Source: a phage | Length of the DNA stretch: 64,000 nt | Sequence record: PX246731.1 | Direction: 5' to 3' (one strand) | In this document: piece by piece, positions 4,083 to 5,800 of the stretch | How the letters are laid out: each line of letters begins with the position of its first letter | Numbering within the stretch: position 1 is the first letter of the stretch | The notes under the pieces: generated by a model | Database searches by the model: none | Seen by the model: the letters and a program-made list of their open reading frames with translations, nothing else | Told to the model about the DNA's origin: nothing | Position numbers and translations under genes: made by a program

Positions 4083-5258
4083 ATGAACCAATTTCCTCAG
4101 CACACACTTAGTGATGAACAACTCATGCGTGAGTATGACCGTATTCAGGCTCAGGCCTTCCTGGGCAAGTCTGCTGCGTTCTTTGGTTCATTGCTGTGTA
4201 GTCTTAAGTTCTCATGGAAACGTGAGGATTGCCCCACTGCATGTACTGATGGGATAGAACTCCATTTCAACCCAGACTTCTTTATCTGGATGTGTCCAGA
4301 TGCAAGAGAAACAGTATTAATGCATGAACTATGGCATGTAGCATATCTACATGACATCCGTCGTGGAAGCCGTGACCCGGAAATCTGGAACCAGGCTTGT
4401 GACCACTTCATTAACCTTCAGTTAGAAGAAGATGGTTACAAGTTCACTGGCATTGACAAAGGCATTTGCAAAGACCCTCAATATAAAGGATGGGTCGAAG
4501 AAGACATCTACGATGACCTGATGAAGAACCCTCAGAAAAGGCAGAAGCCGTCAGGGGGTGCTGGAGCAGGTCTTGCTGGCGACATGAAATCCCCCACTTC
4601 GGGGCAGTCCCAGGGTGCTGTTGTCAACAACGTAGTACGTGCAATGCAGAGCCAAAAGATGGCTGGTGGAACAATGCCCGGTAAGGGTGCTGGTCGTATG
4701 GAAGAGGTTATTACCCAATTCCTTAAACCAGTGGTTCCATGGCAGGAAGTTCTCATGAACTTCTTTACCGACATTGATGACACACATTATACGTGGGCCA
4801 GACCTAACCGTCGTTACACTGACATCTATCTACCTTCACTGGAAGATGATGAAGGTCGTTTACGCCACTTAGCCTACTTTGAGGATGTGTCTGGTTCTAT
4901 TAGTAGTGCTGACTCTCTGCGTTTTAACTCAGAGGTCGCCTATGTTAAGAGCCAGTTTAATCCTAAGAAGATGACCCTAATTACCTTCGACGATACTATT
5001 CAAGAAGAGATAGACATCACTGAAGAAGATACTTTTGAAGAGATTAAGATTACTGGTCGTGGTGGTACAAACCTGGAACCAGTACGCGAGTGGATTATTA
5101 AGAATAAGCCAACCGCTGCAATCATATTCTCCGATATGTATGTTCGCCCAATGGAAGAATTGCCATTTGATATCCCTATCATCTGGTGTGTTCTGAATAA
5201 TCCTAATGCTACCGTACCTTTTGGGGAGGTAGTTCATATCCCTAAAGGAATGAAATAA
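4083..5258 (+). CDS. VWA-like domain protein with HExxH metallopeptidase-like N-domain (MoxR partner, DUF2201/COG3864-like)
   Basis: HELWH motif (HExxH) in the N-domain; C-terminal VWA-like region (MTLITFDDT..ITGRGGTN). Sits directly downstream of the MoxR ATPase, the canonical MoxR-VWA arrangement. Start chosen at the first ATG after the exon 3 stop; ORF track shows an upstream extension from 3999. Confidence 0.6.
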   Translation: MNQFPQHTLSDEQLMREYDRIQAQAFLGKSAAFFGSLLCSLKFSWKREDCPTACTDGIELHFNPDFFIWMCPDARETVLMHELWHVAYLHDIRRGSRDPEIWNQACDHFINLQLEEDGYKFTGIDKGICKDPQYKGWVEEDIYDDLMKNPQKRQKPSGGAGAGLAGDMKSPTSGQSQGAVVNNVVRAMQSQKMAGGTMPGKGAGRMEEVITQFLKPVVPWQEVLMNFFTDIDDTHYTWARPNRRYTDIYLPSLEDDEGRLRHLAYFEDVSGSISSADSLRFNSEVAYVKSQFNPKKMTLITFDDTIQEEIDITEEDTFEEIKITGRGGTNLEPVREWIIKNKPTAAIIFSDMYVRPMEELPFDIPIIWCVLNNPNATVPFGEVVHIPKGMK

Positions 5259-5800
5259 TGGAAACACCCATAAAAACCTGTCGCAAGTGTTTGCAGGAGT
5301 TCCCGGCTACGCTTGAGTTCTTTTACAAGAACGCTGGTGGCAAATATGGGGTAACTCCACGGTGCAAATCATGTGTTAATGAGGATAATGCAGCCGGGCA
5401 TGCAAAACGTTTGGCTGCTAATCCAGAAAAGATACGTGCTCAAGCTGCTGCCCGTAGTAAAAAACATTATTACAAAGATTTGGAACAATCGCGTGAACGA
5501 CAGTGTATAGCTCAAAAGAAAGCGAGAAATGATCCCGTAAGGGGAGAACGTATTAAAGCACGTAAACGTGCAAATGGTGCTGGGCTAACACCGGAAGAGA
5601 TACAACAACTCCTCATTAGTCAAGGAGGCGTGTGTGCTATCTGTGGTGATCCACCTACCGATTTAGACCATTGCCATAAAACAGGTAAAGTTAGATTTCT
5701 ACTATGTAAGCATTGCAATAGAGGACTGGGTGCTTTTAAAGATAAGCCAGAACTAATGCGAAAAGCTGCACAACTACTGGAAGACTTCAATGATAATTAA
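5258..5800 (+). CDS. Endonuclease VII-like HNH nuclease (free-standing homing-endonuclease-like)
   Basis: Paired Cys motifs: CRKC..C.SC at the N-terminus and [37 protein letters not shown] (Endonuclease_7/HNH-type zinc site). Start overlaps the upstream stop (TAATG). Confidence 0.65.
   Translation: [180 protein letters not shown]

Follow-up and report, generated by a model that had tools for sequence, protein, structure and literature searches.

A probable DHHRN-type homing endonuclease gene that most likely travels with the dCTP deaminase gene of N4-like phages

The stretch of phage DNA analysed here (sequence record PX246731.1; 64,000 nucleotides, referred to below as the window) carries a gene for a free-standing endonuclease between a VWA-like gene and a dCTP deaminase (DCD) gene. 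We labelled this gene, which occupies positions 5258–5800, E7. Other loci and contigs used for comparison carry L-numbers, among them phages EC1-UPM (L001), UE-S5a (L002), HN05 (L003, PP100845.1) and N4 (L137). The window region was approximately 91–95% identical to genomes of the genus Gamaleyavirus (G7C-like, N4-like coliphages of the Schitoviridae), and in all matched Gamaleyavirus genomes the aligned span was about 540 base pairs (bp) shorter than in the window. The E7 gene and its two neighbours are the following.

4083 to 5258, plus strand: VWA-like/metallopeptidase gene, homologue of N4 gp25, left border of the insertion; 391 amino acids (aa), matches to DUF2201_N (E = 2e-56) and DUF2201 (E = 3e-35), 98% aa identity to EC1-UPM

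5258 to 5800, plus strand: E7, free-standing Endonuclease VII (Endo VII)-motif (DHHRN-type) endonuclease gene; open reading frame with an ATG start, 180 aa, matched by Pfam and PHROG, missing from EC1-UPM at exactly that point

5790 to 6242, plus strand: DCD gene of the 'short' type, homologue of N4 gp26; 150 aa, GLTECGYD, Pfam DCD/dUTPase fold (E = 2e-17)

The first-pass annotation of the window had proposed a Cys-rich nuclease gene with small overlaps with both the VWA and the dCTP deaminase-like gene. The string quoted there was found in the E7 reading frame, and the overlaps amounted to 1 nucleotide (nt) and 11 nt: the E7 ATG shares a single nucleotide with the upstream VWA stop (TAATG, 5256–5260) and the final 11 nt of E7 overlap the DCD gene, whose ATG lies at 5790. 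The empty site is represented by EC1-UPM, where VWA and DCD share the sequence ATGA, and the same was observed for PhAPEC5 and KKP 3715. Comparison with EC1-UPM set the limits of the insertion at window position 5259 (L001 5594) and window position 5789 (L001 5589). Both neighbouring genes were intact after the insertion, with the VWA stop becoming a TAA that overlaps the new ATG and the DCD start placed inside the last E7 codons. The AGGA found 8 nt before the E7 ATG is the one that serves DCD in the E7-less relatives.

Profile searches assigned the product of E7 to the Endo VII nucleases. Pfam PF02945 (Endonuclease_7) matched residues 106–175 with 67.9 bits (cut-off 23.6, E = 7.4e-19) and several PHROG 'endonuclease VII' families were matched with a best E of 3e-31; these matches are therefore far beyond chance. 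NCBIfam held no model for the E7 protein. Fang et al. (2018) described the Endo VII motif (DHHRN) as a family of its own inside the superfamily of beta-beta-alpha-metal nucleases, and separated proteins with a C-terminal motif, the 'endonuclease clade', from a resolvase clade (PMC6083498). The founding DHHRN homing endonuclease is F-CphI, encoded by ORF177 of cyanophage S-PM2, a free-standing enzyme for which site-specific cleavage was demonstrated (PMC6083498). E7 was aligned with F-CphI by BLASTP (E = 5e-16) and by hhalign (probability 98.1%, E = 9e-14), the latter covering F-CphI residues 7–139 of 142. Two modules were distinguished in E7.

5279 to 5374, plus strand: zinc-ribbon-like N-terminal module, CxxC...CxxC (C8, C11, C36, C39); none of the four cysteines varies among 43 homologues, and F-CphI has an aligning CxxC...CxxC at its own N-terminus

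5573 to 5782, plus strand: C-terminal beta-beta-alpha-metal catalytic domain; Pfam residues 106–175, aligning with T4 Endo VII 7–71 and Hpy99I 157–198

The N-terminal zinc-ribbon-like module is presumed to bind DNA. The motif in T4 Endo VII comprises C23/C26, D40, H41, H43, R54, C58/C61 and N62, and the DHHRN residues of the CxxC-DHxH-R-CxxC-N pattern are essential in both F-CphI and T4 Endo VII (PMC6083498). E7 contains the CX2-4C...D-H-x-H...R...CX2C-N pattern of PF02945 nucleases, with C126, C129, C150 and C153 assigned by alignment as zinc ligands and D137, H138, H140, R146 and N154 as catalytic residues. All of these E7 residues, together with C8, C11, C36 and C39, were invariant in an alignment of 43 E7 homologues of 58–88% identity. 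When E7 of the window was compared with that of contig L096, the proportion of nonsynonymous differences (pN) was 0.08 and that of synonymous differences (pS) 0.74, a low dN/dS. The invariant catalytic and zinc-binding residues and the low pN relative to pS indicate functional constraint and strong purifying selection.

An AlphaFold2 model of E7 (mean pLDDT 88.7, pTM 0.46) was elongated and multi-domain. It showed two short N-terminal strands followed by a helix, with pLDDT above 90 over the zinc-ribbon module, long helices within residues 37–104 (56–91 and 93–104) and a C-terminal beta-beta-alpha unit plus a final helix. Because of this elongated, multi-domain shape, a Foldseek search of the whole model against the PDB gave weak matches (top Hpy99I, E = 0.02; T4 Endo VII, probability 0.84 over 71 columns), and nothing was gained beyond the sequence matches. 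By sequence, the best match among solved structures was Hpy99I (E = 1.4e-5, residues 136–177), with T4 Endo VII second (E = 0.02). As to whether E7 could be a plain zinc-finger protein, which the first-pass annotation had named as the finding that would count against a nuclease, Pfam, PHROG, Hpy99I, T4 Endo VII and the homology along nearly the whole of F-CphI all pointed to a nuclease. The label 'HNH-type' used there was loosely right as regards the superfamily, which is the same beta-beta-alpha-metal one, but not as regards the family, since the Endo VII motif defines the separate DHHRN family (PMC6083498).

E7 resembles F-CphI in that both genes are free-standing, lie outside any intron or intein and adjoin a conserved gene, and both proteins combine an N-terminal CxxC...CxxC module with a C-terminal CxxC-DHxH-R-CxxC-N motif. 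With this C-terminal motif and the near-full-length alignment to F-CphI, E7 would belong to the DHHRN 'endonuclease clade'. The two proteins are only 31% identical, and E7, unlike F-CphI, contains an extra helical segment of about 45 residues between the modules (E7 residues ~60–100 were unaligned in hhalign). F-CphI has psbA as its neighbour and cuts at a site where an intron inserts ('collaborative homing'); E7 adjoins a dCTP deaminase gene that has no intron. The activity of F-CphI is proven, that of E7 predicted.

The type II restriction endonuclease Hpy99I (PDB 3FC3) has in common with E7 a 'GLG.FKD.P' segment after the CxxCN. Hpy99I is sequence-specific, and a fold of the E7 type can therefore read a specific DNA sequence. 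No relation could be demonstrated between the N-terminal parts of the two proteins. Hpy99I is bacterial and paired with a methyltransferase, whereas E7 is a phage gene with no adjacent cognate methyltransferase, its neighbours being VWA and DCD here as in all orthologous loci, so that restriction of the Hpy99I kind found no support.

The free-standing Seg and Mob endonucleases of phage T4 provide a third comparison. Like E7, they are found between conserved genes, and close relatives differ in whether they have them; co-conversion with the endonuclease gene extends to flanking alleles of the gene next to it, and nucleotide-metabolism genes are typical neighbours. Homing endonucleases beside such genes are commonplace in phages. 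Seg and Mob are GIY-YIG or canonical HNH proteins, unlike E7 with its Endo VII motif, and co-conversion in T4 was established by genetic crosses, whereas that of E7 is read from sequence mosaics. The T4 enzymes (SegF, SegG, MobE) and 'localized marker exclusion' have been reviewed (PMC2988022). In every in silico test E7 would qualify as a member of the DHHRN family and, under the operational definition applied, as a free-standing homing endonuclease gene.

A comparison of synteny, proposed in the first-pass annotation, demonstrated that E7 is not universal at this locus and recurs at the same junction in a distant genus. In a tblastn search of 50,697 phage records no other copy was detected in Gamaleyavirus, including about 100 cultured members, and N4 was also without E7. 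Orthologues were found in four of these records, the Burkholderia pseudomallei N4-like phages HN01, HN02, HN04 and HN05 (65% aa identity), which were the sole matches above 36%. The order VWA, E7, DCD was observed in these phages in the same slot, with E7 again overlapping the DCD start, while in the sister phage HN03 VWA directly adjoins DCD and E7 is missing. The orthologue in HN05 (L003 4983–5540) is unannotated and an opposite-strand 'hypothetical protein', ORF38 (5025–5444), is annotated over it; in the HN01 record the orthologue is labelled 'recombination endonuclease VII'.

The exact 180-aa E7 was present in 33 blocks of public assemblies, always in the order VWA, E7, DCD (150 aa) and on backbones with or without each of two intron-like insertions of the ATPase gene (intron 1 and intron 2, described below). 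More than 120 E7 protein clusters were obtained at 57–74% identity, many of them on contigs of 70–76 kb, the size of an N4-like genome. From GenBank, IMG/VR, JGI, ENA and Logan we collected about 37 loci with a full-length E7 orthologue of at least 50% identity. All of them abut DCD; the DCD is short where E7 lies upstream of it and long where E7 lies downstream. The downstream arrangement is itself polymorphic: L117 contains a clean E7 insertion of about 565 nt just after DCD when compared with L200 and L194 (89–96% identical), and its difference from L200 consists of E7 plus about 28 nt only. Precise empty sites were thus found in three lineages, represented by EC1-UPM, PhAPEC5 and KKP 3715, by HN03 versus HN05, and by L117 versus L200 and L194. 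We also sampled DCD loci from IMG/VR independently of E7, and none of the 80 best (66 of which had flanks of 700 nt or more on either side) contained an E7 homologue. The small number of carriers and the constant adjacency to DCD therefore describe an element that is rare but site-faithful. Paralogues of E7 were not found elsewhere within the window.

Evidence of recent movement was obtained from contigs of a different genus. The backbone of contigs L088, L090, L091 and L093, which were obtained in two or more sequencing projects, matches phage N4 (genus Enquatrovirus) at 98% identity. In these contigs the end of gp25, gp26 (the long DCD) and gp27 are replaced by 1.7 kb of Gamaleyavirus-type sequence, composed of 72 nt from the end of VWA, E7, the short DCD, an open reading frame of 69 aa and a superinfection-immunity gene. 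In the window the corresponding feature is the following.

5204 to 6279: recently transferred tract comprising the last 55 nt of VWA, E7 and the whole DCD; 99.7% identical (3 mismatches) to L088 and L090, with the adjacent VWA at about 60%

When the N4-backbone contigs were compared with the Gamaleyavirus contig L087, 1,532 bp were 100% identical and the flanks were approximately 60% identical or could not be aligned. The E7 cassette is absent from the cultured N4 relatives. In the Gamaleyavirus contigs L087, L089 and L092, E7 and DCD were 99.7–100% identical to the window and the flanks 91–97%. Chimeric assembly was considered as the origin of the N4-backbone contigs and rejected: the sequence is N4-like again to the left and to the right of the replacement, four contigs from at least two projects show it, and a few single-nucleotide polymorphisms distinguish L088 from L090. 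A second, older allele of E7 was detected at the same site in L096 (88% aa and 73–80% nt identity to the window), and in that comparison the pS was 0.74 for E7 and 0.26 for VWA. The identical tracts on diverged backbones and the contrast in pS between E7 and VWA thus indicate that E7 and its host genomes have had decoupled histories. Most likely, to judge from these sequences, E7 recently jumped between different N4-like phages together with the neighbouring dCTP deaminase gene. That the element moves with adjacent DCD sequence, and that its orthologues always adjoin a DCD gene, goes beyond what the first-pass annotation had described.

The N4-type recombinants have brought in the Gamaleyavirus Imm_superinfect gene (L088 5299–5900), and from just upstream of N4 gp28 the sequence is N4-like again (compare L137 4421–4690). 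They may thus have a tandem pair of immunity-type genes; in L088 no gene is called over the stretch equivalent to gp28.

Alignment of the DCD proteins of N4-like phages (window 5790–6242, L002 6066–6572, L137 3614–4120 and L085 3001–3519) revealed two types. The short type has 148–150 aa and the signature GLTECGYD / RVLNKSTWARKG-DASMTTN; the long type has 168–172 aa, the signature GLGEAGYD / IVHDKSTWARR-LSV-FNT and an extra loop of 20–30 aa. The NCBIfam model dCTP_deam scored the types at 84 and 79 bits, just under its cut-off of 92.8. The window DCD was 73% identical to the E7-linked DCD of HN05 and only 48% identical to the long DCD of UE-S5a, a phage of the same genus. Short DCDs like that of the window (90–95%) were found only in EC1-UPM, PhAPEC5 and KKP 3715, and the other Gamaleyaviruses and N4 have the long type (46–51%). 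Between the window and the Burkholderia phages the identities were 65% for E7 and 73% for DCD, compared with 44% for VWA and 50% for the ATPase, and this greater closeness of E7 and DCD across genera again speaks for a decoupled history of E7.

Sliding-window comparisons (window with UE-S5a, HN05 with HN03) showed that the swapped unit consists of E7 plus almost the whole DCD. Its breakpoints were the same in both phage groups, the VWA stop on the left and the conserved last 20–50 nt of DCD (KYQNQ..PV.AR) on the right. Within the short-DCD background a smaller segment follows the presence or absence of E7.

5790 to 5852, plus strand: 5' ~63 nt of DCD, a haplotype co-varying with E7 presence or absence (EC1-UPM, PhAPEC5 and KKP 3715 against both E7-carrying types)

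The three E7-less phages have a single haplotype over DCD nt 1–63, with 12–13 mostly synonymous differences from both E7-carrying types. Farther into the gene, EC1-UPM is identical to the window type (nt 61–180) and PhAPEC5 and KKP 3715 are nearly identical to L096 (nt 64–275). The simplest reading of these mosaics would be that in a short-DCD recipient the converted unit was E7 plus about 63 nt. We infer that DCD nt 1–63 may contain or adjoin candidate cleavage or immunity determinants. The difference between GLGEAGYD and GLTECGYD was considered as a general target or immunity determinant and rejected, as phages with the downstream arrangement keep E7 beside a GLGEAGYD-type gene.

Taken with the family assignment, these observations make it probable, in our judgement, that E7 is a free-standing DHHRN-type homing endonuclease which cleaves the genomes of relatives without E7 within or close to the 5' part of DCD and is copied, with DCD, during repair. 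E7, VWA and DCD would be expressed as one operon. During co-infection of an E7-carrying phage with an E7-less relative, E7 would nick or cut the E7-less genome in or by the 5' part of DCD, with DNA bound by the N-terminal zinc ribbon and basic helices and cleaved by the C-terminal beta-beta-alpha-metal site. The break would then be repaired by recombination with the E7-carrying genome as template, and E7 with flanking DCD sequence would be copied into the recipient. In a recipient with a short DCD only about 63 nt of DCD would be co-converted; in one with a long DCD (about 50% aa identity) the whole gene would be replaced, because no usable homology is available before the conserved last 20–50 nt of DCD or beyond. 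The enzymatic activity of E7, its cleavage site and the role of the nuclease, and not ordinary recombination, as the driver of transfer are what we infer.

A stronger version, in which the spreading unit is a cassette of a nuclease with an immune target allele, so that E7 and the short DCD replace the resident long DCD outright, is possible but on balance doubtful. Replacement of a long by a short DCD alongside E7 was observed independently in three groups, namely Gamaleyavirus, N4-type genomes and the Burkholderia N4-like phages. If the cassette does spread in this way, a homing endonuclease would drive, across phage genera, the replacement of a gene of nucleotide metabolism by a non-orthologous one, and how much is converted would depend on the point at which homology returns: about 63 nt in a recipient with a short DCD, the entire gene in one with a long DCD.

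Several observations weigh against homing as the driver or against its simplest form. The identical tract in the N4-type recombinants runs 1.1–1.6 kb to the right of E7 and includes the 69-aa reading frame and the superinfection-immunity gene, so ordinary modular recombination selected for those genes could carry E7 passively. E7 coexists with a long DCD in the downstream arrangement, so the long DCD cannot be the target in general. Short DCDs without E7 exist (EC1-UPM; IMG/VR loci L141–L146), a difference for which either gain or loss of E7 may account. The base composition gives no signal of foreign origin, with a GC content of 43.1% for E7 against 43.3% for the window and only mildly lower GC at third codon positions. 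A neighbour-joining tree of E7 proteins, calculated without support values, was unresolved and did not cleanly separate the two gene orders, and no conclusion was drawn from it.

The first of these observations leads to the alternative that E7 is a passive passenger in a VWA-DCD-Imm mosaic hotspot, which N4-like phages exchange during co-infection by ordinary recombination, homologous or illegitimate, and that it spreads by linkage to selected neighbours such as the short DCD or the immunity gene; E7 itself may then act as a host-directed or a general nuclease. In the N4-type recombinants the identical tract indeed spans E7, DCD, orf69 and most of the Imm gene, mosaicism among close relatives is also seen in the 68-aa reading frame (6273–6479) and the Imm region, and short DCD alleles occur apart from E7. 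Against this, E7 by itself shows precise indels, accompanied by no more than about 63 nt in the short-DCD background and about 28 nt in L117 versus L200. Placement at a DCD border in very diverse phages combined with overall rarity is what a site-specific element predicts, and not random mosaicism, and neither the strong purifying selection on the catalytic residues of E7 nor its near-full-length homology to F-CphI, a proven homing enzyme, favours a passenger. We consider this alternative unlikely.

The movement of an Imm_superinfect gene with the cassette into the N4 backbone could also suggest that E7 is a weapon of competition between phages (localized marker exclusion), or an anti-host nuclease, maintained for its benefit to the carrier. 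T4 Seg endonucleases both home and exclude competitor alleles, and PADLOC matched E7 to a Type II restriction endonuclease (REase_II, Hpy99I-like, E = 4e-7). However, exclusion has the same mechanism as homing, the cutting of a rival genome, and differs in selective interpretation only; the neighbours of E7 are VWA and DCD and not a partner methyltransferase, and the rarity of E7 argues against a strong benefit, which leaves this explanation with very little probability.

T4 endonuclease VII (gp49), a Holliday-junction resolvase, shares with E7 the beta-beta-alpha-metal core, the zinc ligands and the D/H/H/R/N residues. In gp49 the catalytic motif is N-terminal and precedes a helical C-terminal dimerisation domain, whereas in E7 it is C-terminal, with a zinc ribbon and a helical linker ahead of it; the match between the two was weak (E = 0.02, 54 residues, E7 110–163 to gp49 7–71), and nothing beyond gp49 residue 71 could be aligned. 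That E7 is itself a gp49-like resolvase or debranching enzyme, clearing branched replication intermediates before packaging, would agree with its Pfam Endonuclease_7 membership, the label in the HN01 record, the shared catalytic residues and the proposal of Fang et al. that Endo VII acts as resolvase in some podoviruses lacking T7 endonuclease I (PMC6083498), but it is highly improbable, given that the C-terminal arrangement places E7 in the endonuclease clade of the same authors, that a full-length alignment with gp49 was not obtained and that E7, unlike the core resolvase gp49, is dispensable and not a conserved core gene of the group, being missing from N4, about 100 cultured Gamaleyaviruses and 80 of the 80 sampled DCD loci.

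Two further insertions were located in the upstream ATPase gene (homologue of N4 gp24, window 1275–4075).

1589 to 2470, plus strand: insertion 1, intron-like, carrying a NUMOD4-HNH_3-AP2 reading frame at 1706–2275; Rfam group I match weak (18.9 bits, E = 0.029)

2805 to 3670, plus strand: insertion 2, intron-like, carrying a NUMOD4-HNH_3 reading frame at 2916–3491; Rfam Intron_gpI at 3447–3620 (32.6 bits, E = 2e-5)

Both Rfam scores are below the group I gathering score of 50. Removal of the two insertions from the ATPase gene yields a protein of 350 aa, 336 of which are identical to EC1-UPM, and each insertion has a T at exon position -1 and a G at its 3' end. The two NUMOD4-HNH_3 reading frames are 34–40% identical to each other. 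In the literature, other N4-like phages are noted to have group I introns that contain HNH genes. The insertions are distributed independently among E7-carrying relatives: L086, L087, L089, L094 and L096 contain neither, L095 only insertion 2 and the N4-type L088 only insertion 1. In UE-S5a and its relatives a different gene, encoding a 158-aa 'HNH homing endonuclease' (L002 4415–4891), is found between ATPase and VWA, in a slot left unoccupied in the window. The intron reading frames, E7 and the UE-S5a-type HNH gene therefore amount to at least four different nuclease-gene insertions in the same 5-kb region across the genus. The first-pass annotation was right to speak of three clustered nuclease genes, which lie within about 4.1 kb, and its description of a selfish-element hotspot holds in view of the independent variation of intron 1, intron 2 and E7 in close relatives and of the different HNH gene in other Gamaleyaviruses.

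Two further observations concern the neighbours of E7. The homologous start of VWA is at 4083, as in EC1-UPM, and not at the ATG at 3999 given in the mechanical list of reading frames, which overlaps ATPase exon 3. PHROG 1314 and several RefSeq records, that of N4 gp25 (L137 2465–3607) among them, give the VWA gene the label 'HNH endonuclease'; no HNH domain was detected in the protein, so this label looks like a propagated mis-annotation. On the other side, the 68-aa reading frame just after DCD is hypervariable, approximately 50–63% identical in L087, L088, L089, L092 and L096 and identical in L086 and L094. In the first five of these relatives its flanks are 90–100% identical, and it forms a second small mosaic module by the E7-DCD cassette.

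A partial coverage of the literature revealed no paper on the E7 family as a homing or mobile element of the Schitoviridae, which is weak evidence of novelty. The E7 family would add a branch from N4-like phages to the small, recently defined family of DHHRN homing endonucleases, of which it appears to be a clear but fairly ordinary example; F-CphI is the one biochemically studied homing endonuclease of that family, and the N4-like branch comprises the more than 120 metagenomic protein clusters. What this case contributes is an unusually clean natural record of transfer across genera, between N4-type and G7C-like phages, and an apparent whole-gene replacement of one DCD type by another. Three annotation errors are brought to light, namely 'recombination endonuclease VII' taken as a resolvase, VWA as an 'HNH endonuclease' and the opposite-strand reading frame over E7 in HN05. 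The E. coli phages N4 and the G7C-like Gamaleyaviruses can be crossed in the laboratory and natural recombinants with sharp breakpoints are available; the locus could therefore be used to measure homing, the length of co-conversion tracts and the fitness effect of the DCD swap. For N4-like phages used in therapy, the record means that modules are exchanged across genera.

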